DNA of 48,802 nt from a virus (lineage: Duplodnaviria; Heunggongvirae; Uroviricota; Caudoviricetes): the IMG/VR virus record IMGVR_UViG_2718218136_000008, positions 1 through 48,802 of that record. One strand, 5' to 3'. Each line of letters begins with the position of its first letter. Positions within the stretch are counted from its first letter, which is position 1. Below are positions 542 through 47,692 of this stretch, piece after piece. Below the pieces are notes generated by a model. That model was not told where the DNA came from, searched no databases, and saw nothing but the letters and a program-made list of their open reading frames with translations. Both the position numbers and the translations under genes were made by a program.

Positions 542-1579
542 TTAACGCTTATCCGCCACCAGTTTGAGCGCGTGTTCCAGCACATTAATGTCTGCACCCG
601 CTTTATGGGCATTTTCACTTAAATAACGCCGCCACTGCCGCGCGCCAGGAATACCCTGGAACAAGCCCAACATATGCCGGGTAATATGGCCGAGATACGT
701 CCCCTGGCTGAGTTCACGCTCAATGTACGGATACATGGCGCGCACTACCGCCACCGGATCGGCATCGGTATCCGAGGAACCAAAGATCTCCCGGTCTACT
801 GCCGCCAGAATACCCGGATTCTGATACGCCTCGCGCCCGACCATCACGCCATCCATATGTTGCAGGTGTGCTTTGGCCTCTTCCAGCGACTTGATACCAC
901 CGTTAATCGACATTGTCAGATGCGGAAAGTCACGCTTCAGTTGATACACACGCGGATAATCGAGCGGCGGGATTTCACGGTTTTCTTTCGGGCTTAACCC
1001 CGAAAGCCAGGCTTTACGTGCGTGGATGATAAACATCTCACACTCGCCTTTGCCGGAAACAGTGTTGATGAAATCGCAGAGAAATTCATAGCTGTCCTGG
1101 TCATCGATGCCAATACGCGTTTTCACCGTCACTGGAATCGACACCACATCGCGCATCGCTTTCACACAGTCGGCAACCAGCTGCGCATTACCCATCAGAC
1201 ACGCACCAAACATGCCGTTCTGCACCCGGTCAGACGGGCAGCCGACATTCAGGTTGATCTCATCATATCCACGCGCTTCTGCCAGCTTCGCACACTGTGC
1301 CAGCGCCGCCGGATCGCTACCGCCGAGTTGCAACGCTACCGGATGTTCTTCTTCACTGTACGCCAGGTAATCACCTTTACCGTGAATAATCGCCCCTGTG
1401 GTCACCATTTCGGTATACAGCAACGTATTGCGGGAAAGCAGACGCAAGAAATAGCGGCAATGTCTGTCCGTCCAGTCGAGCATAGGAGCAATGCTAAACC
1501 GAGAACTCCAGTAAGCGCCAGTTTTTTCAGGCATCACGCTGGTTTGATTAGTTTTCTGTGTTTCAGGATTATCGTGCAT
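542..1579 (-). CDS. dusA: tRNA-dihydrouridine synthase A; first ~32 codons are supplied by the prophage
   Basis: 345-aa ORF with Dus-family sequence ([14 protein letters not shown]...NVGCPS...); attL core lies inside its 5' end. Confidence 0.9.
1476..1483. other. attL core TCGAGCAT (prophage/chromosome junction inside dusA)
   Basis: Identical 8-mer recurs at 47589..47596; flanks on both sides encode homologous but non-identical DusA N-termini. Confidence 0.6.
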
Positions 1580-1611
1580 TTTTGAACATTTCAGGCTATT
1601 TTTCTCGCGTT

Positions 1612-1647
1612 AGGTTCCCGCACAGGTTCCCACGCTTTATGGGAACC
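1612..1647. promoter_or_regulatory. GGTTCCC repeats (two direct, one inverted) upstream of int; possible arm-type or operator sites
   Basis: AGGTTCCC at 1612..1619 and 1624..1631, GGGAACC at 1641..1647, just upstream of the int start. Confidence 0.3.
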
Positions 1648-1667
1648 CGAAATAACGAGGTCGTGTA

Positions 1668-2765
1668 ATGGCGTACTATAACATAGAGAAACGACTAAAA
1701 TCCGATGGCACACCACGCTATCGCTGTAATGTGATTATCAAAGAAAAAGGTGTTATCACTTACAGGGAAAGCAAAACATTCCCTAAACATGCTCATGCCA
1801 AAACATGGGGCGCACAGAAAGTGATGGAATTAGATCTATATGGCATTCCATCATCAAATGCTGTTGACGGACTTACAGTCCGTGACTTACTACACAAATA
1901 TTTAAATGACCCAAATGCCGGAGGTAAAGCAGGCCGTACTAAAAGATATGTGCTGGAACTGCTTATGGATAGTGACATCTCCGCGATCAAACTATCTGAA
2001 CTGACAGAAAATGACGTAATTGAACATTGCAGGCTAAGAAACAACGCTGGTGCAGGCCCAGCAACAGTCAGCCACGATGTTAGTTATCTTGGCAGTGTTC
2101 TGGATGCGGCAAAACCTGTATACGGAATCAATTACACATCAAACCCGGCGAAAAGCGCTCGTCCATATCTACTTAAACTCGGTTTGATTGGTAAATCAAA
2201 CCGTCGTAATCGTAGACCAGCATCTGATGAACTGAACATGCTCATTGAAGGCCTTCAACAACGATCTACTCATAAATGCTCAAAAATTCCGTTCGTTGAT
2301 ATCCTCAAATTTTCTGTGTGGTCCTGTATGCGAATCGGAGAAGTATGCCGGTTACGATGGGAAGATCTCGACCAGGAACAAAAATCTATACTAGTAAGAG
2401 ACAGGAAAGATCCACGTAAAAAGGAAGGCAACCATATGAAAGTTGCCTTGCTTGGGGAAGCCTGGGATATCGTCCAGCGACAACCCAAAAAATCAGAATT
2501 CATTTTTCCATATAACAGCACTTCTGTTACCGCAGGATTTCAGAGGGTAAGAAGCAAATTAGGTATTAAAGATCTGAGATACCATGATTTGCGTAGAGAA
2601 GGGGCAAGTCGCTTATTTGAGGCTGGTTTTAGTATTGAGGAAGTCGCTCAGGTTACAGGGCATCGTTCATTAAACGTGCTATGGCAGGTATATACCGAAC
2701 TGTATCCGAAATCTTTACATAATCGTTTTGAAGAACTCCAAAGGAGCAGAAATAAGACCTCTTGA
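1668..2765 (+). CDS. int: tyrosine-type integrase (dusA-targeting)
   Basis: 365-aa ORF with C-terminal tyrosine recombinase region (RYHDLRREGASR...HRSLNVLWQVY); GAGG RBS; adjacent to att site. Confidence 0.9.
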   Translation: MAYYNIEKRLKSDGTPRYRCNVIIKEKGVITYRESKTFPKHAHAKTWGAQKVMELDLYGIPSSNAVDGLTVRDLLHKYLNDPNAGGKAGRTKRYVLELLMDSDISAIKLSELTENDVIEHCRLRNNAGAGPATVSHDVSYLGSVLDAAKPVYGINYTSNPAKSARPYLLKLGLIGKSNRRNRRPASDELNMLIEGLQQRSTHKCSKIPFVDILKFSVWSCMRIGEVCRLRWEDLDQEQKSILVRDRKDPRKKEGNHMKVALLGEAWDIVQRQPKKSEFIFPYNSTSVTAGFQRVRSKLGIKDLRYHDLRREGASRLFEAGFSIEEVAQVTGHRSLNVLWQVYTELYPKSLHNRFEELQRSRNKTS

Positions 2766-2793
2766 CACTGTTTATCCATACAGTTAAAAATAA

Positions 2794-2813
2794 TACTGTA
2801 TACAAATACAGTG
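2794..2813. promoter_or_regulatory. LexA (SOS) box overlapping the dinI-like promoter
   Basis: TACTGTATACAAATACAGTG fits CTGT-N8-ACAG; TTGACA at 2762..2767 upstream. Confidence 0.5.
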
Positions 2814-2825
2814 TAGGGGACTTTT

Positions 2826-3074
2826 ATGCGTATTGAAATCTGCATAGCCAAAGAAAAAATGACTAAAATGCCAACCGGTGCTGTGGATGCGTTAAAGGAA
2901 GAATTAACCCGACGCATCAGTAAACGTTATGACGATGTAGAAGTGATCGTAAAAGCCACCAGCAACGATGGCCTTTCTGTTACGCGCACCGCTGATAAAG
3001 ATTCAGCTAAAACTTTTGTTCAGGAGACTCTGAAAGATACCTGGGAGTCTGCTGACGAGTGGTTTGTTCATTAA
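2826..3074 (+). CDS. dinI: DinI-family DNA-damage-inducible protein
   Basis: 82-aa [13 protein letters not shown]...[16 protein letters not shown], resembles DinI (~81 aa) especially at the C-terminus; LexA box upstream; GGGGA RBS. Confidence 0.8.
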
Positions 3075-3105
3075 GTTCATCATCTCTGGACACCATTCAC
3101 TTGTA

Positions 3106-3135
3106 TTGACTTTAAGATCATTAAATTGTAATAAT
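3106..3135 (+). promoter_or_regulatory. sigma70-like promoter for the leader/SLATT-like/RT operon
   Basis: TTGACT (3106..3111), 18-bp spacer, AATAAT (3130..3135); predicted start just before GGGGCAGG at 3146. Confidence 0.4.
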
Positions 3136-3142
3136 TCAAAGG

Positions 3143-3296
3143 GATGGGGCAGGTTTTTCCTCTTGCGCATGCAAGGGCGGCTCTGATAATGAACAGTAAT
3201 ATTTTACTGTTGAGCTTATGCTCACTGATCCTGCCGGGCAGGATGTTCAACGGTTCCAATATATCCTGCCCCTTCCGCTTTTAAAAAGGATCTTTT
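3143..3296 (+). ncRNA. structured 5' leader / candidate non-coding RNA of the RT module
   Basis: GGGGCAGG (3146..3153) is the inverted repeat of CCTGCCCC (3265..3272); hairpins at 3164..3177, 3192..3211 (8-bp stem), 3211..3222; palindrome ATCCTGCC-G-GGCAGGAT at 3228..3244; no ORF. Confidence 0.3.
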
Positions 3297-3848
3297 ATGC
3301 ATGACAATATTTGGTTTACATATAAAGCACGTATCCAAGCGCACCATCGACTAGAATGGCTTGAAAAACACTCTCAATTTATCCTCGTTTGGTATGCTAT
3401 ATTGAGTGCGGTACTTTCAATTGTAACGTTGCGATTTCCAAAGGTTCTAGGAGATAATACAGATGTCGTTGCGGCGATACTTTCAGTGGCTCTACTGGGT
3501 ATTTCTCTGATCGTATCTAACCTAGATTTTCGTGGTCGAGCAATAGCCATGAGAAGGAATTATATTGCACTACAGCGACTCTATTTTGACATTACCACCA
3601 GTCAACAGTTATCTCTTGAACAGAAAGAAAAATATTTTAATTTGCTCAATGAGGTTGAGAATCACCGTGACATAGATGATAAAATTTCAAGGGTAACTCA
3701 AGTTGGACTTAAGACGAGGATCCCCACACAAAAAGAAAAAATAATTGTTATTTTATGGATATTACTTCGAATATTTATTACTGCCGCACTTTATATACTC
3801 CCATTAATATATCTTTGGATTGACTATGACTGCAAGCAGAATTTTTAA
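3297..3848 (+). CDS. small membrane protein, SLATT-like (N-terminal helix, two TM helices, helical region, C-terminal hydrophobic helix)
   Basis: 183-aa ORF, AAGGA RBS; hydrophobic segments FILVWYAILSAVLSIVTL, VVAAILSVALLGISLIVSNL, IIVILWILLRIFITAALYILPLIYLWI; 3' end overlaps the RT gene by 23 nt; low GC. Confidence 0.6.
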   Translation: MHDNIWFTYKARIQAHHRLEWLEKHSQFILVWYAILSAVLSIVTLRFPKVLGDNTDVVAAILSVALLGISLIVSNLDFRGRAIAMRRNYIALQRLYFDITTSQQLSLEQKEKYFNLLNEVENHRDIDDKISRVTQVGLKTRIPTQKEKIIVILWILLRIFITAALYILPLIYLWIDYDCKQNF

Positions 3849-5196
3849 AAAGTCATTCTCGAAAAAAAATCTTCTAAAAGTATACTCTGAAAAAATCAAA
3901 GAATCAGGAGCGATTGGCATAGATCGGATTCGCCCATCAAAACTTGATTTGACAATAAAAAATGAGATCACTTTCATTTTTGAAAAGGTTAATTCTGGCA
4001 ATTACAAATTTACAGCATATAAAGAAAAATTAATATCTAAAGGCGCTAACTCTACACCCAGACAGATTTCCATACCAACTGCTAGGGACAGAATTACTCT
4101 TAGAGCTCTCTGTGAATGCCTTACGGAAATATATCCTAAGTCCAGATTAAAACTACCACATACAGTAATTGACTCATTGAAAGAAGCATTAAACAACAGT
4201 CTATATGCTGAATATGCAAAAATAGATCTTAAAAGTTTCTATCCTTCAATTGAACATAAATTGATAATTAATGCAATAAAAAATAAAATTAGAAAAAAAG
4301 AAATTAGACAGTTAATAACATCATCATTAATCGTGCCTACTGTAAGTGGAACCACAGGAAGCAAAGGTATCCCTAATAATACCAGAGGAGTACCTCAGGG
4401 ATTAGCGATATCAAACATTTTAGCTGAAATATCACTATCTAATTTCGATGATGAAATCAATAAAATGCATGACATATGGTACATGCGATACGTTGATGAC
4501 ATTCTTATTTTAACACCAAAATATCAAGCAACAAAAATAGCTTCTCATATCATTGATAAGCTTCAATCATTAAATTTAAACCCACATCCATTAAATGAAG
4601 AGAACTCAAAATCCAAAGTAGGCAGCTTGGATGAAAGTTTCAACTTTTTGGGCTACCACATAAAAAATCGAGAATTATTGATAAAACATGAGAGCATTCT
4701 TAGATTTGAGTCATCCTTAGCAAAAATTTTTACTGCATATAGACACGCTCTACTACAAGCTAAAAATAAGCGCGATAAAGAACGAGCTGTTGCATATTGT
4801 CAGTGGAAACTAAATCTTAGAATTACGGGATGTGTGTTTGAAGGTAAACGATTGGGATGGGTATCGTACTTCTCACAAATAACGTCAACAGCTCAACTTC
4901 GAGCTGTTAATCATACGATCAATAATCTTATCCGCCGATTCGGCCTTTCATCAGAAATAAAACCAAAGTCTTTGATTAAAACTTTCTATGAACTCCGCAG
5001 GGGTAGAGCGGAGACTTTTAAATACATACCTAACTTTGACAATCTACATATATCTCAGAAACGAGAAATTGTTTCTATGTGGATAGGGAAAGAGAATGAA
5101 AAAAAACTTAGCAATAGTGAAATAGAGAGAAAATTTAAATTTAAAATTGCGAAATCAGTAAAAGAGCTTGAAGAGGACATTTCAGGGATATCATAG
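3826..5196 (+). CDS. reverse transcriptase (retron/UG-DRT-like prokaryotic RT)
   Basis: 456 aa from ATG 3826; RT motifs RQISIPTARDRITLRAL, DLKSFYPSI, GVPQGLAISNILAEISL, YMRYVDDILIL (YVDD), FNFLGYHI; ~180-aa C-terminal extension; low GC. Confidence 0.85.
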   Translation: MTASRIFKKSFSKKNLLKVYSEKIKESGAIGIDRIRPSKLDLTIKNEITFIFEKVNSGNYKFTAYKEKLISKGANSTPRQISIPTARDRITLRALCECLTEIYPKSRLKLPHTVIDSLKEALNNSLYAEYAKIDLKSFYPSIEHKLIINAIKNKIRKKEIRQLITSSLIVPTVSGTTGSKGIPNNTRGVPQGLAISNILAEISLSNFDDEINKMHDIWYMRYVDDILILTPKYQATKIASHIIDKLQSLNLNPHPLNEENSKSKVGSLDESFNFLGYHIKNRELLIKHESILRFESSLAKIFTAYRHALLQAKNKRDKERAVAYCQWKLNLRITGCVFEGKRLGWVSYFSQITSTAQLRAVNHTINNLIRRFGLSSEIKPKSLIKTFYELRRGRAETFKYIPNFDNLHISQKREIVSMWIGKENEKKLSNSEIERKFKFKIAKSVKELEEDISGIS

Positions 5197-5249
5197 ATAT
5201 GTAATCCATTAAATCCTTTATATATAAAGCAATAAACACACTATTTAAA

Positions 5250-5294
5250 TTCACAAATCAGCCGCAGTATCCTGCCATGACAAGTTGCTGCGGC
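5250..5294 (-). terminator. hairpin downstream of tfa (late-operon terminator candidate)
   Basis: GCCGCAG/CTGCGGC stem (5261..5267 / 5288..5294) with 20-nt loop, followed on the minus strand by a U-rich tract. Confidence 0.3.
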
Positions 5295-5308
5295 ATATCA
5301 CAAAACGA

Positions 5309-5893
5309 TTACTCCATAACAGGGACCGCAGGCCACTCAATATCAGGTGCAGTTGATGTATCAACACGGTTCAGCAACACCCGATACTTCTTCCAGGCTT
5401 CCAGCAACGAGTTTTCTTCCTCCGTTGCGATCTCCAGATCTACAGCATCCTGAAGTGGCGCTATATGCTCACTGGCTACCTGCATCAGGCTGTTTTTTGT
5501 TTCTTCCGCCTCCCGGATCCGGAACAGTTTTTCTGCTTCCGTATCCTTCACCCAGGCTGTGCCGTTCCACTTCTGAAACTCCCCTTCCGGGGATAACCAG
5601 GTAACATTTTCCGGTAACGGACCGAGTTCAGAAATAAATAACGCGTCCCCTGACGCTACGTCATAAACCGTTTTACCCCGATGGTCTTCAACGAGATGCC
5701 ACGATGCCTCATCACTGTTGAAAACAGCCACAAAGCCAGCCGGAATATCTGGCGGTGCAATATAGGTACTGTTTGCTGGCAGACCTGTATGAGGCGGAAT
5801 ATATGCGTCACCTTCACCAATAAATTCATTAGTTCCGGTCAGCAGATTATAAATTTTTATGGTCCGTGGTTGTTCACTCATTCTGAATGCCAT
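5309..5893 (-). CDS. tfa: tail fiber assembly protein
   Basis: 194-aa [21 protein letters not shown]..., closely matches recalled lambda Tfa; TAATG overlap with stf stop. Confidence 0.9.
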
Positions 5894-8800
5894 TATGCAA
5901 GCCTCACAATATAGTTAAATGCGATGTTTTTGACGGTGTTTTCCGCGTTACCCGCAGCGTTAACGGTGATGGTATGTCCATGTGAACCAATCGCAACGGA
6001 GTGCGTATGAGCACCAATACCGACAGTATGCGCGTGTGCACCTGCAGATGCTGCTGTGCCGGACAGTGAGTGGCTATGATTACCATCTGTACTGGTATTC
6101 GCTAACCACCCCGTAGACATACCTACTGAGCCTTGTACACCCCAGGTATTTTGACCTGAGCTTGTATAACCATATTGATAAGTATCTTTAAAAACACTGG
6201 GGTTAAATCGACGGCCATCTCTATGGCTGTGATTACCAGCTGCATTCGTGCTGCCACTTAAACTATGGGTATGCGCACCAGTGTTATTCGTGGATTTAGT
6301 GCCGTAATCAAACGACGATGTGGTTTTCGTCCCCAAATCAGTACTGGATGCGCTGGCGCTGTGGGTATGCGATTTTATGCCGTCCTGTTCCTGAGACAAT
6401 ACGGCACGACCACTGGCGGGCTTGCCCTTAATCGTCCAGCCACGCATATCAGGGATCACGCCTGACGGATAAGCGGCTGCAAGTTTCGGGTAGGCAGATT
6501 TGTCAAAAGTCTGCCCCTGCATCAGGGCATAACCAGACGGAACGGTATCTGATGGCCACGGGATTGGTGCGCCGACTGGGTAGCTTTCTGGTGGAAGATT
6601 TTTCGAGGTATAAACTTCTGCCCAGTCTTCCTCAAAACCATAACCGTCTCTTGAAGAACGGTAGAACAGACCACCATTTCTGTAATGCGCCTTCATCTGC
6701 AAGGTCCGGCAACTTCCGACTCCGGTATAGAAGTTAACCAGAATATAGCTGTCGCCAGAGCGGGTGACATTATAAGCGCCTGATTCGGCATTCCAGGGAA
6801 CGCCACCATCCGCATCGGCATATGTATCCGTTGCCCTTCTGGCAAAAGCAGCCACATGCGCGGCGGTTAAAGTAATATCTTTGGAACCATCAAACTCAAC
6901 ACCAGAAACCCGTCTTGGCGTTTGCAGCTTTGTTGCTGTTAATGCATTACCGTTCAGACTTGCGGACAGTTTGGTTCCAATAACCAGTTCGCCGGTTGCG
7001 TTATCAATAGCAAACGGTCTTAATGTATTCCATCCACCATAAACATCACCTTGATTGGTAAGCAGCAGGTAAGTTTTAGCGCCATCATTACGCCATAATG
7101 CCCCATACTCCCCACCTATCATTCGAATCTGATTACCACCACGCGCTACAATTTCGTCTGTGGCAAAAAGTTTTTTGCACGACAAGTTATCGTTAACGAT
7201 TAACGAATGAGACTCATAAAAACCACGCCCACTCTTAAAATCAAGGATAACGTCCGCCGCGATACATTCAGTCGCTGGATTTGTTGCCCCAAACTTATAG
7301 GTCGTATCATTAACAACGAGATCAGCACCAGGTGCGGATATTGACAGGCCATCTTCGATAAACGCAAAAACAGGGAAAGCAGCGCCATCAACATAGAACA
7401 CAGAGCGCAAATCATCGCCCTTATTACTCATCATTATTGAGTGGATGGCTCGTTCATTGTTTTGATATTGCCAGAACATTCCATAAGCATAACGCCCCCT
7501 GTCAGTCCAGCCACCAGGCATAACAAATCCGTTAAACTCGCAGTTATTCATCGGATCGCCTGCGGTTCGCGTTGCCGTGGTGATAATGACCCTTGATGCC
7601 AGTTCGCTTACTGAGCCAGCAGAACGCATAACAACAACAGGGTAATATTTTCCAGATGTTGCACCTGCAGGAGCGTTAACCCGCACATAACGCATACCAC
7701 GCTTATCAGCAAAGTCTGTTTTACTGACCGCGTTAATGTTGTTCAGGAAGCGTCCCTTATCGGGTATATCAGCGCCGTTCTGGTCTTTCTGCAGACGTTT
7801 CTCTGCATTGTCATAGGCTGATTTTACTGCCTTTGGCGTTGCCGCCAGCGTTTCAGACGTACTGTTGGTCGCACTGCTGAGCTGTACTATCCCCTTTTTC
7901 GTCGTACTTGCATCCTCAAGCGCCACGGCGGATGCAATATCCTCTGCCCGTTTTGCCGCTGTCTCGGCGCGCGTTGCCGCGGATTCCGCCGTACTTTTGC
8001 TCTGTGCTGCCGCCGTCGCACTGCCAGCTGCCTCTGTCGCCTTCGTGGATGCTGTCGTGGCGCTGCCCTTCGCTGCGGACGCTTGTCTGGTCGCCTCATC
8101 TTTTGAAGCAGACGCCGATGATGCCGATGACGCCGCCGAACTGGCGGACGATGCGGCAGCCGTTTTTGAGGATTCTGCGCTGGTTTCCGACGCTTTCGCG
8201 TTCGTCTCGGATGTCTTCGCTGCGGAAGCAGACCTTGCTGCTGCGCTGGCCTGTTCAGTGGCTTCGCCAGCCTTCGTTGTGGCTGTTGAAGCAGACGATG
8301 CGGCACTTTCTGCCGATTTTCCGGCGGCGGTGGCACTGGCTGAGGCCTGCCCGGCACTTGTTGACGCGGCACTGGCAGACGACGCAGCCGCTGTTTTTGA
8401 GCCTGCCGCAGCCGAGGCGCTCTGTCCCGCTGCCGTTTCAGAAGACCTGGCGTTTGTCTCAGACGTCTTTGCCGCCTTCGCGGAATTGCCTGCCGCCGTT
8501 GCCGAGGAAGCGGCACTACTGGCGCTTGATGATGCGTTCGTTTCTGATGATTTCGCTGCCTCTTTTGAGGCCGCCGCATCCCGGGCTGAGGTGGCTGCTT
8601 CTGACGCCTTCGTGGTCGCGGCGGATGCAGAAGTGGCTGCTGATTGTTGTGACGCTGCCGCATTCGTTTCTGACGTTTTCGCCGCACCGGCACTGGTAGC
8701 TGCCGCGCTTTTTGAGGACTCTGCAGCAGCAGCACTTTTCGATGCTTCACTGGCCTTTGTTGATGCCGTTCCTGCGCTGGAAGATGCTGACTGAGCCGAC

Positions 8801-9297: not shown

Positions 9298-9301
9298 CCC
9301 A

Positions 9302-37903: not shown

Positions 37904-38541
37904 GCGTTAGTTTCTCCACAACCAGAAGCAATCGACGCCACGACGCCCGGAGCTGCACACTCGCGGGCGTTACTCTTTTCCGGCGCACAAAAAACACGAA
38001 ATAACAGTGTTAAATGCTCCTGCCACTTCGCCATTACTTGGTAGCTGTTCTCTTCGATTTGCTCACGCTCAGCTTGGTCAATAACTCCATCAGCAGTTGC
38101 CTTGCGTAAGTACTGGGAATGCTTGCCAATCCATTCTATTGACTCCATCAGCCGCTGATTAATGTCACCATTGTCAATGTCATCAATGACCACCAGCGGC
38201 ACAAACACCCCATTACTACGACGGGCTATTGCATCCGTTACATGCCTGGTACCACTGGCATCCTGTAAAACCATGGCCCACTCAAGTGGAAAAATTTGAT
38301 CCCCACCGCTACGCAGTCTGTTATGCAATTGATCTTTTGCTGGGGTGATATCATCAGATTTATACAAACCAAGAATTTCTGCTGCTTCCTCATAGCCATG
38401 AGGTAAATCAGCAATCGTTCTTCGTATTGCTGCCACCAGCCATGCTGGTTGCTTATCAACTTTCCATTCAGGTTCTTTACCCACGTTTAAGCCCTCATAT
38501 CTGTGGTTTCTGTAAATCGATTTATCCATTAGATTTTTCAT
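37900..38541 (-). CDS. CII-like regulatory protein (possibly phage 186 CII/CP76 family)
   Basis: ~213 aa from ATG 38541; segment [23 protein letters not shown] resembles recalled CII-family pattern; immediately after cro. Confidence 0.5.
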
Positions 38542-38722
38542 AAAGCTCAGGTTTAAATGGCAACCGTCCGCAAGTTCTATATGCAGCCTCTGCTGCACGT
38601 CCTTTTGGAATTAACTGGCCAGGACGGTTTCGCCACTGATAAACGGCTTCAGTTGTTATGCCGAAAAAAGCAGCAACTTTCTCAATGCTGCCGAAGTAGC
38701 TTTCGATATCGTCAGTCGTCAT
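38522..38722 (-). CDS. cro: Cro-like HTH repressor
   Basis: 66-aa ORF with HTH (KVAAFFGITTEAVYQWRNR), divergent from cI across an operator region. Confidence 0.75.
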   Translation of the reverse strand: MTTDDIESYFGSIEKVAAFFGITTEAVYQWRNRPGQLIPKGRAAEAAYRTCGRLPFKPELYEKSNG

Positions 38723-38819: not shown

Positions 38820-39446
38820 ATGGAAACGGTTGGTCAGCGTATAAAAGCTCTGAGAAGAGTTACCAGAACGTCCCAGAAAGAATTGGGTAAATTTTGTGGA
38901 GTAAGTGACGTTGCTGTGGGGTACTGGGAGAAAGACATCAATGTCCCTGGTGGGGAAGCACTTTCAAAATTAGCGAAGTTCTTCAATACGTCAATAGATT
39001 ACATTCTTTATGGTGCGGAGTTTGAAGGCAAACTCGTCACAAACATGCGCAGAGTTCCTGTAATCTCGTGGGTTCAGGCTGGGCAGTTTACTGAGTGCAG
39101 GACAGCAGAAGTGTTTAGTGAAGTAGACAAGTGGGTAGATACATCATTAAAGATTGGTGATAACTCATTTGCATTGGAGGTTAAAGGCGACTCCATGACT
39201 AACCCTAACGGCCTCCCAACAATACCAGAAGGCGCAACAGTGATTGTAGATCCTGATGCAGAACCCCGGCATGGAAAAATAGTCATCGCTAGACTTGATG
39301 GAACAAACGAAGCCACAGTAAAAAAATTAGTTATCGATGGCCCTCAAAAGTTTTTAGTGCCATTAAATCCCCGGTACCCCAACATCCCGATCAATGGTAA
39401 TTGCCTCATCATTGGTGTAGTCAAAGGAGTTCAATACGAACTCTAG
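38820..39446 (+). CDS. cI: CI-type repressor (HTH plus S24 LexA-like autopeptidase)
   Basis: 208-aa ORF; N-terminal HTH (QKELGKFCGVSDVAVGYWEKD), C-terminal GDSM…K peptidase motif. Confidence 0.9.
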   Translation: METVGQRIKALRRVTRTSQKELGKFCGVSDVAVGYWEKDINVPGGEALSKLAKFFNTSIDYILYGAEFEGKLVTNMRRVPVISWVQAGQFTECRTAEVFSEVDKWVDTSLKIGDNSFALEVKGDSMTNPNGLPTIPEGATVIVDPDAEPRHGKIVIARLDGTNEATVKKLVIDGPQKFLVPLNPRYPNIPINGNCLIIGVVKGVQYEL

Positions 39447-39469
39447 CCCCCCTTTTCTCTAACCAAAAC

Positions 39470-39680: not shown

Positions 39681-39974
39681 ATGGTCATATTCTGTGCTTA
39701 CGTTCATCCTAATGGATTTTTTATCAGCACCAACCAACAAGACGAATTCTGGATTCTACTTAGTAAGCAGATCGGATGGGGACGATTCTGTCTAATCCGA
39801 CCAGAATCAGAATTTACAGAGAATGGAGGGCTTTTTGAATTACGTGAAATACGTCCGGCAGATGGTCAAGCCCCTGACCAAGTAATCGAATCGTCAGCTG
39901 TTTTATGGCGTCGGCAGGAAGCGTTCGAAGCTGAGAAAGTAATTTCTTCTTATCTTCAGTCGTGGCAGAAGTAG
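39681..39974 (+). CDS. hypothetical protein (uncertain; overlaps convergent 167-aa ORF)
   Basis: 97-aa ORF with AGAGGG RBS; no arginine-rich N-like motif. Confidence 0.25.
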   Translation: MVIFCAYVHPNGFFISTNQQDEFWILLSKQIGWGRFCLIRPESEFTENGGLFELREIRPADGQAPDQVIESSAVLWRRQEAFEAEKVISSYLQSWQK

Positions 39975-40317
39975 AACTATTGATGATACGTTCAAGTTCA
40001 CAGAGAGTCTCATCATGCAATCTTATTGTCATAATCCCAAGAATAGCTTTAAGACCTCCATCATCACGAATGAAATCAATTCCATCTTTAGTAATTCTTA
40101 ATTCAGGAATATTTATATTTATGCCATCCAAGTAATAATCAAGAGCATTCTTAATCAAGCCATGTTCTTCGAGATAAATTAAGTTCGAAATTAGGACATT
40201 ATCATCTCCAAATGCGTCACGAACAGACTGCAACGCATCATCAGAAATTTCATAAGGATGAGCATCATACAGTATTTGTAACAACTGCCTTTGTGCACTT
40301 CTATCAAATTTGTCCAT
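39814..40317 (-). CDS. hypothetical low-GC accessory protein in the immunity region
   Basis: 167-aa ORF; low GC relative to flanks; opposite orientation to cI and early-left genes; no recognised motif. Confidence 0.45.
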   Translation of the reverse strand: MDKFDRSAQRQLLQILYDAHPYEISDDALQSVRDAFGDDNVLISNLIYLEEHGLIKNALDYYLDGININIPELRITKDGIDFIRDDGGLKAILGIMTIRLHDETLCELERIINSSTSATTEDKKKLLSQLRTLPADAIKQLTIRLLGQGLDHLPDVFHVIQKALHSL

Positions 40318-40595
40318 CTTAAATAATCACCATGTTATTGGGGGTATCAAGATTAACCGAATCCTTGTTGTTGGGGAATAACCAGGTCCACCTCGCCTGA
40401 TGTGGCTAAAAGCAGGCACATAACAGCTAAGTATTTTCAACCAGAGAGAATCCTTAGCGTTGTGGTGAATGCGGCTCAGCGCACGCGGGTTAAGGTTGAG
40501 GCTGACAGTCGACCTTCTGTGGATACCCACCCGCCTGGTGTGCAACCTTCGCCAGGCACCGGGAGGCACCCGGCACCACAACAGCCACTGCTTTG

Positions 40596-40641
40596 GCGGT
40601 ACCAGTTTGTACACTTGCTTCCGGCTGGTACCGCTCTTTTT
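40596..40641 (+). terminator. intrinsic terminator upstream of the yfdP-like gene
   Basis: Perfect 10-bp inverted repeat GCGGTACCAG/CTGGTACCGC with 19-nt loop followed by TCTTTTT. Confidence 0.5.
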
Positions 40642-40730
40642 ACAAAACAGAGAAGAGCATCACCGGACGACGGGCTCATAACCCAATCCATCCGGGCGGC
40701 TGCCACCGCAGGTGTTCTTCTCTGTTTTGT
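40642..40730. repeat. 15-bp perfect inverted repeat with 59-nt GC-rich loop
   Basis: ACAAAACAGAGAAGA (40642..40656) and TCTTCTCTGTTTTGT (40716..40730). Confidence 0.5.
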
Positions 40731-40778
40731 GGAGAAACCAACCGACCTTGCAGGGTCGATATGATGAGGAGCAGCAAA

Positions 40779-41141
40779 ATGGCTAGCGAACGCAGTACTG
40801 ATGTGCAGGCATTTATCGGGGAGCTGGACGGCGGCGTATTTGAAACCAAAATCGGCGCAGTTCTCAGTGAAGTCGCTTCCGGTGTGATGAACACGAAAAC
40901 CAAAGGTAAGGTCTCGCTCAACCTGGAAATCGAACCGTTTGATGAGAACCGTGTGAAAATCAAACACAAACTCTCATATGTTCGCCCGACTAACCGCGGG
41001 AAAATTTCCGAAGAAGACACCACCGAAACGCCGATGTATGTCAATCGCGGTGGTCGCCTGACTATTCTGCAGGAAGACCAGGGACAATTACTGACTCTTG
41101 CCGGTGAACCTGACGGAAAACTCCGCGCAGCAGGTCGTTAA
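40779..41141 (+). CDS. yfdP: YfdP-like prophage protein
   Basis: 120 aa from ATG 40779 (MASERSTDVQAF...), GAGGAG RBS; size and order match recalled KpLE1 yfdP-T cluster. Confidence 0.7.
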   Translation: MASERSTDVQAFIGELDGGVFETKIGAVLSEVASGVMNTKTKGKVSLNLEIEPFDENRVKIKHKLSYVRPTNRGKISEEDTTETPMYVNRGGRLTILQEDQGQLLTLAGEPDGKLRAAGR

Positions 41142-41207
41142 TATCGTTTTTAATAAACTAATTATTCATCTTATCACTGAATATCTTTAATATAGTGAGG
41201 ACTTATT

Positions 41208-42032
41208 ATGTCTCAGAACTTAGACGCAACCGCAATTAATCAAATCCATGCCCTTATTTCTGCTCAGGGTGTTAATGAAATTATCAGTAAGATTGGTGCC
41301 GATGCTGTGGCATTGCCTGAGAATTTCCGCATTCATGATCTGGAAAAATTTAATTTAAATCGCTTCCGTTTCCGTGGTGCACTTTCCACTGCCAGCATCG
41401 ATGACTTTACCCGTTATTCTAAAGATCTTGCAGATGAAGGCACCCGCTGCTTTATCGATGCCGATAATATGCGAGCCGTCAGTGTGCTTAACCTGGGTAC
41501 TATTGGTGAACCAGGTCACGCAGATAACACCGCCACACTCAAACTGAAAAAGACAGCACCGTTCTCTGCTCTGTTGTCTGTTAATGGCGAGCGTAACTCC
41601 CAGAAGTCACTGGCAGAATGGATTGAAGACTGGGCCGACTACCTTGTGGGCTTTGATGCTAATGGTGACGCTATTCAGGCAACAAAAGCGGCTGCGGCGG
41701 TCCGTAAAATCACGATTGAAGCAAACCAGACCGCTGATTTTGAAGATAATGACTTCAGCGGCAAACGCTCCCTGATGGAGTCTGTCGAAGCGAAGACCAA
41801 AGACATTATGCCAGTAGCATTTGAGTTTAAATGCGTTCCGTTTGAAGGTCTGAAAGAACGTCCATTTAAATTACGCCTCAGCATTATCACTGGCGATCGT
41901 CCTGTACTGGTTCTGCGCATTATTCAGCTGGAAGCAGTGCAGGAAGAAATGGCTAACGAATTTCGTGATCTGCTTGTTGAGAAATTCAAAGACAGCAAAG
42001 TAGAAACCTTTATTGGTACTTTCACCGCCTGA
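41208..42032 (+). CDS. yfdQ: YfdQ-like prophage protein (DUF2303-like)
   Basis: 274-aa ORF, same length and order as recalled yfdQ. Confidence 0.75.
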
Positions 42033-42160
42033 TTTCATTACTGCAAATGCCCCTGCGGGGGCATTTATGGAAACGTAATTAACTCAATAATCGCCGGATG
42101 GTGAGGGCTTCCTTTTACCAGAATTCAGCGCGGTGCAGCGCATATAACGTGGAGAACAAA

Positions 42161-42697
42161 ATGTCATTTATTAAAACTTTTTCCGGGAAGCATTTTTATT
42201 ATGACAGGATAAATAAAGACGACATCGTTATTAACGATATCGCGGTTTCTCTTTCAAATATCTGTCGCTTTGCAGGACATCTTTCACATTTCTACAGCGT
42301 CGCCCAACATGCGGTGCTTTGCAGCCAGCTGGTACCGCAGGAATTTGCTTTTGAAGCATTAATGCATGATGCAACAGAAGCGTATTGCCAGGACATCCCC
42401 GCGCCACTGAAACGCCTTCTTCCTGACTATAAACGGATGGAAGAAAAAATAGACGCCGTAATCCGTGAGAAATACGGGTTACCCCCGGTTATGAGCACGC
42501 CCGTGAAATATGCCGATCTCATCATGCTGGCAACCGAACGCCGCGATCTCGGGCTTGATGATGGCTCTTTCTGGCCTGTACTGGAAGGTATCCCGGCAAC
42601 AGAGATGTTCAAAGTTATTCCACTGTCGCCAGGCCATGCCTATGGGATGTTTATGGAACGTTTTAACGAGTTATCGGAGTTACGCAAATGCGCATGA
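42161..42697 (+). CDS. yfdR: HD-domain phosphohydrolase (YfdR-like)
   Basis: 178 aa from ATG 42161 (MSFIKTF...); HD-like motif HFYSVAQHAV...MHDATEAY. Confidence 0.75.
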   Translation: MSFIKTFSGKHFYYDRINKDDIVINDIAVSLSNICRFAGHLSHFYSVAQHAVLCSQLVPQEFAFEALMHDATEAYCQDIPAPLKRLLPDYKRMEEKIDAVIREKYGLPPVMSTPVKYADLIMLATERRDLGLDDGSFWPVLEGIPATEMFKVIPLSPGHAYGMFMERFNELSELRKCA

Positions 42698-43050
42698 ATG
42701 TTTTCGAAATGGAAGGGTTTCTTCGCGGGAAATGTGTACCACGAGATCTGAAAGTGAATGAAACAAATGCTGAGTACCTGGTGCGTAAATTTGATGCGCT
42801 TGAAGCTAAATGTGCAGCACTGGAAAACAAAGTAATACCAGTGTCAGCTGAACTGCCGCCAGCGAATGAAAGTATTCTGTTATTTGATGCTAATGGAGAA
42901 GGCTGGCTGATTGGCTGGCGTTCTCTCTGGTATACATGGGGGCAAAAAGAAACCGGAGAATGGCAGTGGACATTTCAGGTCGGGGACCTTGAAAACGTCA
43001 ATATCACTCACTGGGCAGTAATGCCAAAAGCACCGGAGGCTGGAGCATAA
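42688..43050 (+). CDS. yfdS: YfdS-like prophage protein
   Basis: 120-aa ORF, same length and order as recalled yfdS. Confidence 0.7.
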   Translation: MRMNVFEMEGFLRGKCVPRDLKVNETNAEYLVRKFDALEAKCAALENKVIPVSAELPPANESILLFDANGEGWLIGWRSLWYTWGQKETGEWQWTFQVGDLENVNITHWAVMPKAPEAGA

Positions 43051-43652
43051 TGACCACATTTACCGATAAAGAACTGATTAAAGAAATCAAAGAACGAATC
43101 AGCAGCATGGACGTGCGAGACAATGTTGAGCGCCGTGCTTATGAAATTGCTCTGGCATCGCTGGAAGAGGATCCGGTGGCATGGCTGCATTCAGACAATG
43201 GCTTAGGTATTCCGGCAATAACTAGGAGTAAAAACATTGCTGACAGTTGGTTATCAAAGGGCTGGTATGTTCAGCCGCTATATATAGCCAAGCCAGTGCC
43301 GGTGGTGCCAGATGCTCGTCCATCTTTAAATAATGGCATAGTCGGTTTTGATGAAGGCTGGAACGCCTGCCGAGCTGCCATGCTCTATGGTGCCGTACCT
43401 GCAAGCCAGGCTTACAAGTTGCCACAAACGCAGTTTAAACAGGTTGCTGACCTCTACGAAATGCAATTTGATGACGGTCGCACTTGTACCTTTCACACTG
43501 ATGCGCAAAAGGCTGTGCAATGGCTTCAGGCGTGCGACGGAAACAGGGTTCAGGAATACGTTAAGCTGGAACGATTGCAGAACGCACTGTCTGGCAACTC
43601 TCCGGTAACTCCGGATGGTTGGGTTATGGTGCCGAAGAGACTAACAGCCGAG

Positions 43653-43657
43653 AACGG
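43653..43657. repeat. IS2 target-site duplication AACGG (left copy)
   Basis: Same 5-mer directly flanks the other IS2 end at 44989..44993. Confidence 0.7.
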
Positions 43658-43668
43658 TGGATTTGCCC

Positions 43669-44574
43669 CTATATTTCCAGACACCTGTTATCACTTAACC
43701 CATTACTGGCTTGCTGCCGTAGATATTCCCGTGGCGAGCGATAACCCAGTGCACTATGCGGATGCCATTCGTTATAATGCTCGAATGCCTCTGCAAGGTT
43801 CTTTGCTGCCGTTAACCCGTCTGGTTTGGGCATGACACTGATGTAGTCACGCTTTATCGTTTTCACGAAGCTCTCTGCTATGCCGTTACTCTCCGGACTC
43901 CGCACCGCCGTGTTCTTCGGTTCAAGCCCCAACATCCGGGCAAACTGCCGTGTTTCATTAGCCCGGTAGCATGAACCATTATCCGTCAGCCACTCTACTG
44001 GAGACGCCGGAAGCTCGTTGCCGAAACGGCGTTCCACCGCTCCCAGCATGACGTCCTGTACTGTTTCACTGTTGAAGCCGCCCGTAGTGACCGCCCAGTG
44101 CAGTGCCTCACGGTCACAGCAGTCCAGCGCGAACGTGACTCGCAGTTTTTCTCCGTTATCACAGCGGAACTCGAACCCGTCAGAGCACCATCGCTGATTA
44201 CTTTCTTTCACAGCCACTCTGCCGGTATGTGCCCGTTTCGATGGCGGTACAGCGGGTTTTCGCTCAAGCAACAGCGCATTCTGGCGCATGATCCGGTAAA
44301 TACGTTTGGCATTGATCGCAGGCATACCATCAAGTTCGGCCTGTCTGCGAAGCAGCGCCCATACCCGACGATAACCATATGTGGGCAGCTCTCCGATAAC
44401 ATGGTGTATACGGAGAAGCACATCCGTATCATCTGAGTGACGGCTGCGGCGACCATCTTTCCAGTCATCGGTTCGTCTGAGAATGACGTGCAACTGCGCA
44501 CGCGACACCCGGAGACAACGGCTGACTAAGCTTACTCCCCATCCCCGGGCAATAAGGGCGCGTGCGCTATCCAC
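43669..44574 (-). CDS. insD: IS2 transposase InsD (orfB)
   Basis: 301-aa ORF matching recalled IS2 InsD (…DDE integrase region). Confidence 0.9.
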
Positions 44575-44897
44575 TTTTTTGCACGCCCGTATTCAACGGC
44601 TTCTTTAAGGAGTTCATTTTCCATCGTTTTTTTGCCGAGCAGGCGCTGGAGTTCTTTAATCTGCTTCATGGCGGCAGCAAGTTCAGAGGCAGGAACGACC
44701 TGTTCTCCTGCGGCCACAGCAGTAAGACTTCCCTCCTGGTATTGCTTGCGCCAGAGAAATAACTGGCTGGCTGCCACACCGTGTTGCCGGGCAACAAGGG
44801 AGACTGTCATTCCCGGTTCAAAACTCTGCTGAACAATAGCGATCTTTTCCTGTGTAGTACGCCGTCTGCGTTTCTCCGGTCCTAAGACATCAATCAT
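44532..44897 (-). CDS. insC: IS2 InsC (orfA), HTH
   Basis: 121 aa from ATG 44897 ([26 protein letters not shown]...). Confidence 0.85.
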
Positions 44898-44988
44898 CTG
44901 CTCTCCAATGACTAGTCTAAAAACTAGTATTAAGACTATCACTTAAATAAGTGATATTGGTTGTCTGGAGATTCAGGGGGCCAGTCTA

Positions 44989-44993
44989 AACGG
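44989..44993. repeat. IS2 target-site duplication AACGG (right copy)
   Basis: Direct repeat of 43653..43657. Confidence 0.7.
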
Positions 44994-45194
44994 CGCTAAG
45001 GGGGCGCTATCCGGTGAATTTTCAGAAACTACGTTTATAAGCTGCCTGGAATGCTTTGGCGATGATGATTGCGATACCTGTGACGGGAGCGGACGTATTG
45101 AAATTAAAGTGCCAGTCACGTGGTCGACCATAAAATCTATCTGGGATAAAGGTATCGAGTATTTTGCAGCAAAACCATCACAAGAGGTGAAGTG

Positions 45195-45767
45195 ATGAAC
45201 AACTTAATGATCGACCTTGAGACGATGGGGAAAAATAAGGATGCACCGATCGTTTCCATTGGCGCGGTGTTCTTCACTCCAGAAACCGGAGACATCGGAC
45301 AAGAATTCTATACGGTTGTTAGCCTGGACAGTGCTATGAAGCTAGGAGCTACACCTGACGGCGATACCATCCTGTGGTGGTTGAAACAAAGCCCTGAAGC
45401 ACGAGCTGCAATCTGTATTGATGATACTTTGTCGATCAGCGATGCTCTCTCAGAACTAAATCATTTCATTAACCGGCACGCAGACAATACGAAATATTTA
45501 AAAGTCTGGGGTAACGGAGCCACCTTCGACAACGTAATTTTACGTGGAGCTTATGAGCGAGCAGGACAAATCTGCCCGTGGGCATACTGGAATGACCACG
45601 ATGTACGCACGATCGTTACGCTTGGGCGTTCCATCGGATTCGACCCCAAAATGGACATGCCTTTCGATGGCGAACGGCACAACGCCCTGGCTGATGCCCG
45701 TCATCAGGCAAAATATGTTTCCGCTATCTGGCAGAAATTAATTCCTGCCACCAGCACAGAATTATGA
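45195..45767 (+). CDS. DnaQ-like 3'-5' exonuclease (DEDD family)
   Basis: 190 aa from ATG 45195; motifs MIDLETMG, WGNGATFD, HNALADA. Confidence 0.8.
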   Translation: MNNLMIDLETMGKNKDAPIVSIGAVFFTPETGDIGQEFYTVVSLDSAMKLGATPDGDTILWWLKQSPEARAAICIDDTLSISDALSELNHFINRHADNTKYLKVWGNGATFDNVILRGAYERAGQICPWAYWNDHDVRTIVTLGRSIGFDPKMDMPFDGERHNALADARHQAKYVSAIWQKLIPATSTEL

Positions 45768-45776
45768 TTTTCCCGG

Positions 45777-46085
45777 GTGCAGCCGGTTTTGATGGAGAAA
45801 ATTATGAACACCTTGTTTTTACTGATGGCTGAATTCAATACCCCTAACATTGAACTCTCAGCAGTTAGCCAAAAGTACTTTGGCATGAGTCCAGCCACGG
45901 CAGAAGCAAAAGCAAACGCTTGTAAGTTGCCCGTTCCAACATATCGCATCGGCACATCACAAAAAGCAAAACGTTGCATCAATATTCAGGATCTTGCGGA
46001 ATACATAGACAAAAGACGAGAAGAAGGACGTATCGAGTGGGAACAGGTCAGAACAGGCAAACAGAAGGGCAAAGAACATCACTAA
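45777..46085 (+). CDS. excisionase/PrtN-like DNA-binding protein
   Basis: 102-aa ORF; segment LPVPTYRIGTSQKAKRCINIQDLAEYI resembles excisionase-like wHTH; near the att-distal end. Confidence 0.45.
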   Translation: MQPVLMEKIMNTLFLLMAEFNTPNIELSAVSQKYFGMSPATAEAKANACKLPVPTYRIGTSQKAKRCINIQDLAEYIDKRREEGRIEWEQVRTGKQKGKEHH

Positions 46086-46087
46086 AG

Positions 46088-46114
46088 AAAAAACCCGCCT
46101 AAAGGCGGGTTTTC
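46088..46114. terminator. bidirectional intrinsic terminator
   Basis: AACCCGCC-TAAA-GGCGGGTT flanked by A6 upstream and T4 downstream (T6 on the minus strand). Confidence 0.55.
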
Positions 46115-46132
46115 AAAAAGCACCAGCTATGA

Positions 46133-46306
46133 TCATGCTGCTTTGCGACGACGAAGCTTACCCTGCTGCTCTTTACCAGAGACAGTAGCGTGAGTGAACG
46201 CATTAGGAGCAGCCTTCATCAGAACTTCAACAGCAGCACCCATACCTGCGAATGCTTTCATTGTGTCGAACTTAACCTGTGGCTTGGTTGCTTTTTGATC
46301 TTCCAT
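46133..46306 (-). CDS. small hypothetical protein (57 aa), third gene of the attR-proximal operon
   Basis: ATG 46306 with GGAG RBS; MEDQKATKPQVKFDTMKAFAGMGAAVEVLMKAAPNAFTHATVSGKEQQGKLRRRKAA; followed by the terminator; below the ORF-track size cut-off. Confidence 0.3.
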   Translation of the reverse strand: MEDQKATKPQVKFDTMKAFAGMGAAVEVLMKAAPNAFTHATVSGKEQQGKLRRRKAA

Positions 46307-46345
46307 AGAAAACTCCAGAAGCTATACCGAAAAAATTCCTGTTGT

Positions 46346-46765
46346 TTACTCATCATCAATAGATGATACGCAATATTTATTTTTAAATTTAAGGTTCTTT
46401 GGCGTAACTTCATCAGATATATCAAAACCGTCCAGAATTCTATTGAATGTAGCTTCTGGCATATCATCATGAACGGAAATCTCACCCGATCGCTGCTTTC
46501 TAACCATGTTATCCACTCGCCAAATTATAGCTTCAGCGTAAACAACATAACTTGGATGCTTGATAAAGCGATGATCACCAGAATTCAAGACGCAAGACGG
46601 ATCGTGGGGGACACCATCCTTGATACTAGAAATATTAACAACTAAAACACAATAACAATCGTTAACGGGGTAATAAACAGGATCATTACAAATCACATGA
46701 AGATGATTGCATGGCCCAGTTGGGGCAAGCACAGTTCCTTTCCTGTATGGCTGATAATCCGTCAT
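46346..46765 (-). CDS. hypothetical protein, candidate toxin/effector partner of the Panacea-like gene
   Basis: 139-aa ORF; start overlaps upstream gene stop (ATGA); no recognised motif; low GC. Confidence 0.5.
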   Translation of the reverse strand: MTDYQPYRKGTVLAPTGPCNHLHVICNDPVYYPVNDCYCVLVVNISSIKDGVPHDPSCVLNSGDHRFIKHPSYVVYAEAIIWRVDNMVRKQRSGEISVHDDMPEATFNRILDGFDISDEVTPKNLKFKNKYCVSSIDDE

Positions 46766-47334
46766 GATAATTGCAAAGAAAATTCCTTAAGTTTCTGAGA
46801 TTCTTCCATTTTGCCAATTATACGATTAGCCTCATCCTCGCTTTTACCCTCACTGATCAGCATTTCTTTCAGGTCTATAGGCTTACGAGAATTGCCAGGA
46901 TTGTGCCACTCTGGACAAACGCTTTCTAAATGCGTCATGTTTGCGAGATCAAATCGGTTCATATGCCCATACAGAGAATAGATTTCATCTAAAATCCGGA
47001 TATCTGCACGGCTCAACTCATCAAAGACCTCGTCTGCATCCATTTCCCTCGGATCTGAACGCAACAACACATCATGCCCGTTCGTCTCTATCAAGTTGTA
47101 CCAGTAGTCACCAATGCCTTCAGCCTTACCACGAATCAAGTTCAGCGTATTCGACATGACTGGACCAAATTTCATAGAGTAAAGGCTATCTTCGCCGATC
47201 ATCCTGCCATGCTTCAAAATCGACTTGCGGTTAGACAGATAGAGCAGCTTCATCAATTTCAGATATGCCATGCGCCCACCTCGCTTAAGAAGTAGGTATG
47301 CAGCCATTTGAGCTACTTTTTCTTCGCAAAACAT
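46762..47334 (-). CDS. Panacea-domain (DUF4065)-like protein, candidate antitoxin
   Basis: 190-aa ORF with KLMKLLYLSNR...FGPV pattern recalled for Panacea/SocA-like proteins; GAGG RBS; low GC. Confidence 0.5.
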   Translation of the reverse strand: MFCEEKVAQMAAYLLLKRGGRMAYLKLMKLLYLSNRKSILKHGRMIGEDSLYSMKFGPVMSNTLNLIRGKAEGIGDYWYNLIETNGHDVLLRSDPREMDADEVFDELSRADIRILDEIYSLYGHMNRFDLANMTHLESVCPEWHNPGNSRKPIDLKEMLISEGKSEDEANRIIGKMEESQKLKEFSLQLS

Positions 47335-47588
47335 ATAAGAAACCTCAAAGATAGTGAACTTTGTAATTATTCTCGATACTTCATGGGTTGCTTCATCACC
47401 AACATGAGCTTCTTATGGTGTGCCCACTTAGGCCTAAGCAACTAGTTACCTTGTTTGTCAAGTTTATAGCTGGCTTTAATCATGGTCAATTGAAGTGATG
47501 AGCAAATGATGCTTTCTAAGAATAACAGGTTCCCAATAGGCTCCCACAAAGTGTATAACTAGTTGTTTTTCAAAAACGGTACATCCTA

Positions 47589-47596
47589 TCGAGCAT
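47589..47596. other. attR core TCGAGCAT
   Basis: Identical to 1476..1483. Confidence 0.6.
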
Positions 47597-47692
47597 TGGT
47601 GCAACGCTAAACCGACCACTCCAGTGAACGTCAGTTTTTTCAGGCATTGCGCTGGTTTGGTTGATTTTTTGCATTTCAGAATTACCGTGCAT
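47589..47692 (-). pseudogene. dusA: displaced native 5' end of dusA
   Basis: Minus-strand reading from ATG 47692 encodes MHGNSEMQKINQTSAMPEKTDVHWSGRFSVAPMLD then diverges at the core. Confidence 0.65.

Follow-up and report, generated by a model that had tools for sequence, protein, structure and literature searches.

The dusA-associated integrases (DAI) were defined by Farrugia et al. (2015, Nucleic Acids Research, PMC4482086) as tyrosine recombinases with the catalytic signature RHRH-Y, related to Rci. The islands and prophages described there replace the 5' end of dusA, so that the original end is found at the far junction and excision restores the wild-type gene. The attachment (att) repeats are semi-conserved and 21-28 bp long, the att site of Acinetobacter baumannii covers the codons for S-V-A-P-M-x-D-W-T, and supplementary Table S1 includes lysogens of E. 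coli phages of 28-47 kb. Durand et al. (2021, PLoS Genetics, PMC8409611) investigated IMEVchUSA3 and other SGI1-like dusA-specific integrative elements. By means of a dusA'-lacZ fusion in E. coli they found that the element supplies a new promoter with somewhat lower expression. The new N-terminus is of identical length and 61% identical over 35 residues, and the PrtN-like RdfN, encoded across attP from int, is the excision factor. Here we analyse a stretch of 48,802 nucleotides, the IMG/VR record IMGVR_UViG_2718218136_000008 (Caudoviricetes; hereafter the window), in which a prophage adjoins dusA. With high confidence we regard it as an apparently intact mEp460-like lambdoid prophage of 46.1 kb, site-specifically integrated at the 5' end of Escherichia coli dusA, which thereby has a replacement start.

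The dusA arrangement is common and, like its family of integrases, its excision factor and the replacement of the promoter, has already been published. All defining features of the dusA-associated elements that were checked are found at this locus, namely integrase type, position, repeats, 5' replacement, relation to Rci and a PrtN-like recombination directionality factor (RDF). As in the elements of Farrugia et al. (PMC4482086), int lies beside and divergent from dusA, the 5' end is replaced at the same target codons, and the integrase shares RHRH-Y and the relation to Rci. Nothing essential sets the two apart; the repeats there are of 21-28 bp, whereas here an 8-bp core lies in a 104-bp repeat of 83% identity. 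The IMEVchUSA3-type elements (PMC8409611) have in common with the present one the target, the 5' replacement in E. coli dusA and a PrtN-like RDF across attP from int. They are, however, plasmid-mobilised islands under AcaCD control, in contrast to a self-sufficient lambdoid phage with a CI/Cro switch. The integrative and conjugative element SXT, located at the 5' end of prfC, differs in integrase, target gene and element type.

Junctions of the prophage and the dusA gene

The positions of the features are collected in Table 1. An earlier note on this DNA had placed one 8-bp core, TCGAGCAT, at both ends, and it is found at both. Each copy heads an ungapped direct repeat of 104 bp (1476-1579 and 47589-47692), the copies of which agree in 86 bases (82.7%) and cover the first 34 codons of dusA. 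The bases flanking the core differ between attL and attR on both sides, so that the shared stretch is exactly 8 bp and the exchange necessarily took place inside the core. Measured from core to core, the element proper comprises 46,113 bp. The note had let it extend from 1476 to 47692, but positions 47597-47692 are host DNA, the stranded start of native dusA.

Table 1. Features of the prophage and of the dusA locus (positions in the window unless another element is named)
Feature	Position	Strand	Details
Resident chimeric dusA	542-1579	minus	345 amino acids; Pfam Dus, E 8e-105
attL core TCGAGCAT	1476-1483		crossover region; encodes DusA M33-L34-D35 on the minus strand
Phage-borne mimic of the dusA 5' end, codons 1-32	1484-1579	minus	
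Candidate P' arm-type sites	1613 and 1625; 1641-1647		dusA-int spacer; GGTTCCC direct, 12 bp apart; GGGAACC inverted
Tyrosine integrase int, dusA-associated (DAI) family	1668-2765	plus	365 amino acids; PF00589, E 8e-21
Candidate extended -10 TGTTATAGT for chimeric dusA	1675-1683	minus	overlaps int codons 3-6
Lambdoid prophage body	5309-45767		PGAP annotation of near-identical E. coli CDF6 prophage, Pfam, mosaic phage matches
P22-type Cro	38522-38722	minus	Pfam
CI-type S24/helix-turn-helix repressor	38820-39446	plus	Pfam
PrtN-family protein, candidate RDF RdfN (excisionase)	45777-46085	plus	PF11112, E 4e-23
Candidate P arm-type sites	47528-47534; 47539-47545	plus	GGTTCCC and GGCTCCC, 11 bp apart; 44-61 bp inside the attR core
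attR core TCGAGCAT	47589-47596		matches of empty-site genomes to the right flank of the window begin exactly at 47589
Stranded native dusA 5' fragment, codons 1-32	47597-47692	minus	100% identical to empty-site allele
Native dusA upstream region	47693-47900	minus	now faces into the prophage end; TGGTATAGT, extended -10-like match, 47776-47784
Repeats in other elements	L084 2249-2266; L085 1248-1266 and 1446-1478; L087 both ends		

As stand-alone evidence the 8-mer was rejected, because it is not over-represented in the window (three copies compared with 1.7 expected), the third copy, at 43777, being unrelated and devoid of flanking similarity. The weight lies on the 104-bp repeat and on the reciprocal attB and attP. 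A tRNA scan found no tRNA gene, hence the att site is not of the tRNA type. A tandem or composite element was also rejected, since neither a second att-like repeat nor a second integrase was seen.

Both partners of the integration occur in nature. The attB site rebuilt from the window (1-1483 joined to 47597-48802; 2,689 bp) shows 100.000% identity to E. coli TH9F11, in which the dusA locus is empty. Anchored on the core and compared base by base, attB of TH9F11 consists of the left half of attL and the right half of attR. The rebuilt attP (47527-47596 joined to 1484-2765) aligns over 1,351 bp, ungapped and with 97.6% identity, with phage mEp460 (NC_019716). In this virion-derived genome the order upstream of int is P arm, TCGAGCAT, dusA-like 5' end, GGTTCCC repeats, int; similarity to the attP of mEp460 and to other E. 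coli dusA elements starts at about 47526-47528. The comparison with an uninterrupted dusA locus called for by the earlier note has thus yielded an empty-site allele with exactly these junctions, the absence of which would have refuted the note; a natural attP was found besides. The attP core is TCCTAT-CGAGC-ATAGGA in mEp460 as well as in the present prophage; this inverted repeat, perfect over 6 bp, is weaker in attB. The attP of phage YeP1 has the identical core TCGAGCAT, and Morganella phage IME1369_02 carries TCCAGCAT at the equivalent position.

In the explanation that we hold with high confidence, the tyrosine integrase inserted the prophage at the conserved stretch of dusA which encodes APMLDWT. 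The phage attP brings along, beside int, a diverged dusA start made up of about 88 bp of upstream sequence and codons 1-32. Owing to this start next to int, crossover in TCGAGCAT joins phage codons 1-32 to host codons 33-345 and keeps dusA open, the native promoter and start being displaced 46 kb away to attR. Excision by Int together with the PrtN-like RdfN would restore native dusA; that the present copy is competent for excision, we infer.

Resident dusA, with pspG downstream, is composed of host DNA (542-1475), the shared core and phage DNA (1484-1579). Since the core corresponds to M33-L34-D35, codons 1-32 are phage-derived, in agreement with the earlier estimate of about 32 codons. On translation the gene starts with precisely the phage-encoded peptide that the note had quoted, and the native start left at the right junction gives MHGNSEMQKINQTSAMPEKTDVHWSGRFSVAPML, likewise as quoted. 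The resident and the stranded N-terminal peptides are identical in 24 of 34 residues, compared with the 61% over 35 residues of the IMEVchUSA3-type elements. At the nucleotide level, mimic and native copy differ in 18 of 96 bases, affecting 10 codons non-synonymously and 4 synonymously; in the virion genome of mEp460 the segment identical to the mimic directly adjoins the P arm. If reading continues across the core and on into the phage DNA, the stranded fragment forms an open reading frame (ORF) of 40 codons ending in APMLDRMYRF and a stop codon. RefSeq genomes already label this fragment as a partial tRNA-dihydrouridine synthase pseudogene.

The solved enzyme of Thermus thermophilus aligns to DusA only from residue 24-26 onward, which places most of the substitutions in an enterobacterial N-terminal extension. 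The first barrel strand (beta-1), RFS[I/V]AP, is conserved, with V to I as the sole change. The high ratio of non-synonymous to synonymous changes fits weak constraint on the N-terminal segment, and chimeric DusA probably retains its function, as Farrugia et al. argued. That host tRNA modification has become dependent on the prophage is true only insofar as phage DNA provides the 5' end and the promoter; the exchanged residues lie mostly outside the alignment to the T. thermophilus enzyme.

As all DNA upstream of codon 33 belongs to the phage, any promoter of resident dusA is phage-derived. On the minus strand of the window the pattern TGnTATAGT is found only twice, 96 nt upstream of the ATG of chimeric dusA and 84 nt upstream of that of native dusA (Table 1). 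The int codons beneath the former match are part of the conserved MAYY start of the integrase. We suggest from this that the extended -10 of native dusA is mimicked by the phage copy; the pattern, it must be borne in mind, was selected post hoc. The lacZ fusion results of Durand et al. suggest by analogy that chimeric dusA is transcribed from phage DNA, and it is in this conditional form that the promoter part of the earlier claim is upheld.

Integrase, candidate excision factor and repeats beside the core

The recognition of the integrase as dusA-targeting was correct, for it matches the family defined by Farrugia et al. (PMC4482086). The start codons of int (1668) and dusA (1579) are divergent and separated by a spacer of 88 bp. 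The catalytic residues are R222, H306, R309, H332 and Y342 (RHRH-Y); alignments of 20 and of 60 sequences show R222, H332 and Y342 without variation, and H306 and R309 with conservation of at least 90%. Int is 98-99.5% identical to the integrases of deposited E. coli phages, including mEp460, Lys8385Vzw, phiSTEC1575-Stx2k and others. A tblastn search with Int against plasmids gave matches in about 2,300 mostly conjugative plasmids, with about 26% identity over residues 69/75-365, including the IncI-type plasmid R64 (NC_005014) and one record annotated rci; the mEp460 record itself cites cd00796 INT_Rci. The shufflon recombinase Rci, the nearest relative of the family among characterised enzymes, matches Int only from residue ~75 to 365 and is without the N-terminal domain. 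The candidate RDF has a homologue in mEp460 that is annotated as excisionase. Directly downstream of int lies a DinI-like gene (2826-3074), and two CTGT-N8-ACAG matches to the LexA box (2768-2783 and 2796-2811) stand ahead of it; the int-dinI module is also present in mEp460.

In an AlphaFold model of Int, with a mean predicted local distance difference test (pLDDT) score of 86, an N-terminal domain of three strands and a helix (residues 1-58) precedes a helical core-binding domain (71-171) and a catalytic domain (186-364). The modelled N-terminal domain consists of strands 2-10, 16-26 and 29-38 and helix 41-58, with pLDDT values of about 84-95, and is followed by a linker of lower confidence. 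In a Foldseek comparison full-length chains of lambda Int align over 358-370 columns with 16-19% identity and a root-mean-square deviation (rmsd) of 13-17 Å. Searches of the Int N-terminus against Pfam and NCBIfam gave no arm-binding family and only a sub-threshold Int_N match at residues 72-165, hence the assignment of the N-terminal domain is based on the predicted structure.

Between dusA and int the earlier note had observed a cluster of GGTTCCC repeats. It comprises three copies, at 1613, 1625 and 1641, the last of them inverted, and two further repeats are located inside attR. When the ends are joined in attP, two repeats stand to the left of the core and three to the right. All four GGTTCCC copies of the window sit at the two element ends; their total number was rejected as evidence (4 found, 5.35 expected), only the location at the ends being informative. 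The attP of mEp460 has the same repeat layout. Phage YeP1 shows the same two-plus-three layout and spacing with a word of its own, GCACCCC, and Morganella phage IME1369_02 the same layout with GGACACC. In each of the four elements examined, the repeats of the P arm are spaced by 11 bp and those of the P' arm by 12 bp. Across 80 related loci the repeat word varies (GTACACC, GGTATCCC, CTGCCCC and others) and the layout is kept. A G+C-rich 7-mer direct repeat with 11-13 bp spacing lies upstream of int in 69 of the 80 loci (shuffle mean 3.2, maximum 9), and an inverted copy is present in addition in 32 (shuffle mean 0.11).

A distribution of two plus three sites across the core is the layout of lambda attP. 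The present system further resembles lambda in candidate arm repeats that lie on both sides and are distinct from the core, and in a separate small RDF; a three-domain Int, as in lambda, is predicted. It is unlike lambda in the low identity of Int given above (16-19% by Foldseek), in the inverted third copy of the P' arm, in an RDF which is PrtN-like instead of Xis-like, in a target inside a coding sequence and in a phage-borne replacement gene start. The residues of the N-terminal domain and the repeat word appear to change together, VITYRES being found with GGTTCCC, KYIYREN with GCACCCC and KHLHRET with GTACACC, which suggests that they co-vary. We consider it reasonably likely that the GGTTCCC/GGCTCCC repeats are arm-type integrase sites in a lambda-like layout, attP spanning about 255 bp; the N-terminal domain of Int is predicted to bind all five, the pair of the P arm and the three copies of the P' arm. 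A full-text literature search on dusA, arm-type and integrase returned no paper whose abstract, the part considered, concerns dusA integrases, and an arm-type repeat layout does not appear in the title, the abstract or the examined sections of PMC4482086.

Gene content and alternative readings

All lambdoid modules are present in the prophage: integration, immunity, replication, antitermination, lysis, packaging, head and tail. The genes of the body encode tail fibre, J, tape measure, capsid/protease, portal, terminase, lysis, Q-like antiterminator, replication and exonuclease functions, and Pfam matches in the window also include terminase, capsid and a CII-like protein. E. coli CDF6 carries at the same site a prophage that is 99% identical to the present one in the left half and related to it in the right. 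PGAP annotation of the CDF6 prophage gives the full lambdoid set, including a capsid-protease fusion, lysis, antiterminator, replication and repressor genes. In its right half the present prophage is mosaic, with parts of the PhiR40_1 and mEp460 phage types, and the best phage match covers only 70% of 25001-47692. With mEp460, PhiR40_1, Lys8385Vzw and phiSTEC1575-Stx2k the prophage shares Int (98-99.5% identity), attP (97.6%), the int-dinI module and much of the early region; its mosaic genome sets it apart from this group.

This gene content bears on whether the element is a fixed and defective remnant unable to excise, with a permanent 5' replacement and att repeats that are mere relics. Cryptic prophages are numerous in E. 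coli, no feature of the sequence is proof of activity, and the early region is mosaic, with the limited phage match just mentioned. We nevertheless judge a remnant to be quite improbable, since full-length ORFs are present for Int, RdfN, repressor, Cro, terminase, portal, capsid, tail and lysis, both cores and all five arm repeats are intact, and Int is almost identical to that of deposited E. coli phage genomes. It is extremely unlikely that the two dusA 5' copies arose by local duplication or homologous recombination without an integrase. A repeat of 104 bp is long enough to make RecA-type exchange conceivable, but its copies are only 82.7% identical and the switch from host type to phage type is abrupt at the 8-bp core; moreover, the phage-type copy belongs to a free phage genome, and homologous integrases use the same site across genera.

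As to the GGTTCCC repeats, they could serve as operators for the PrtN-like RdfN or the phage repressor and regulate the diverging promoters of int and dusA. The spacer of 88 bp, in which both promoters must lie, is filled by the three P' copies, and a direct-plus-inverted arrangement is also typical of operators. Yet in four independent elements copies are also located across the core, some 50-60 bp from it and remote from any int promoter. Int has, according to the model, an extra N-terminal beta-sheet/helix domain that is missing from its Rci relatives, and the two-plus-three distribution across the core is that of lambda attP. We therefore think a role as operators unlikely and favour the reading as arm-type sites.

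Several points weigh against an intact, dusA-integrated phage with a promoter and arm sites of its own. As regards excision and induction, the present copy is known from sequence alone. A consensus scan of the dusA strand from 1580 to 1700 found no sigma-70 -35/-10 pair for chimeric dusA, so that the promoter proposed for it draws on the TGnTATAGT match and on the literature. Given the high full-length rmsd, the match of the N-terminal domain to lambda Int is supported mainly by the topology of secondary structure. The 80 loci are related, and the shuffle control accordingly overstates their independence. Because int and the repeats are physically linked, their co-variation may reflect co-inheritance and is not taken as proof of recognition. 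Finally, the binding of the candidate arm sites by the N-terminal domain is itself a prediction from sequence and modelling.

Distribution, cargo and significance

In 733 of 5,426 complete E. coli genomes (about 13.5%) int adjoins dusA. The same divergent neighbourhood is seen in 54 of 80 species-representative loci, from Enterobacterales to Vibrio, Shewanella and Colwellia, and a gap of about 88 bp between int and dusA is found in enterobacterial loci. The other 26 integrase relatives are without an adjoining dusA, some merely because the flanks are short. Loci away from dusA occur in Xenorhabdus (L029, L034-L037, L039, L040), Serratia (L030/L031) and Raoultella (L053/L055). In the Xenorhabdus copies the direct repeats have been retained, together with a decayed mimic of the dusA start (MHEN..., with stop codons) at a distance of about 90 nt from int. 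These copies abut other genes, including upp-like and DEAD-box-helicase-like ORFs, the N-termini of which were judged by eye. Several genomes with a copy away from dusA also hold a dusA-adjacent one, and this suggests that the former are secondary or retargeted sites used when dusA is occupied.

Two gene groups of the prophage have no annotated counterpart at the equivalent positions in mEp460. A cassette on the plus strand (3297-5196), located between dinI and the tail-fibre genes, encodes an effector-like SLATT_5 protein of 183 amino acids with two transmembrane segments, whose gene overlaps that of a reverse transcriptase. The match of the reverse transcriptase to the PADLOC model RT_UG17 extends over the entire length (E 1e-158); that of the SLATT protein is to a model of reverse transcriptase-associated SLATT proteins (E 1.5e-56). 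On account of a G+C content of 33.7%, as compared to 50.2% for the prophage, the cassette is probably recently acquired anti-phage defence cargo. In the neighbouring tail-fibre assembly gene (5309-5893), the full Rfam model IS009 (RF02111) matches at 5352-5550 on the minus strand with 224.6 bits.

The second group lies at the attR end (46346-47334, minus strand; G+C content 41%) and consists of a gene for a Panacea/SocA-domain protein of 190 amino acids (PF13274), followed by an ORF of 139 amino acids without family match. They are a candidate PanA antitoxin/toxin pair. The pair is oriented like the stranded native dusA promoter, and terminator prediction from 47588 to 47334 found no terminator-like site; read-through from the native host promoter into the Panacea-domain genes is therefore conceivable in the integrated state. 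At the opposite end, three repeats fill the 88-bp spacer that holds the divergent promoters of int and chimeric dusA, for which reason occupancy by Int or an intasome could couple dusA expression to the state of recombination. Taken jointly, the proposals that a lambda-like N-terminal domain of the dusA integrases uses the five candidate repeats as arm-type sites, that spacer occupancy couples dusA expression to recombination, and that the native promoter at attR drives the Panacea-domain genes specifically in the lysogen are put forward as tentative and rather doubtful.

The locus illustrates clearly how a phage, by bringing a decoy gene start with it, can insert into a conserved housekeeping gene without inactivating this gene. 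For annotation it provides exact att boundaries for a type of prophage that about 13.5% of complete E. coli genomes contain. To what is published it adds no more than a likely lambda-style architecture of arm sites for the family of dusA integrases, in which the repeat word differs from element to element; this architecture could help to delimit attP and to predict integrase specificity.

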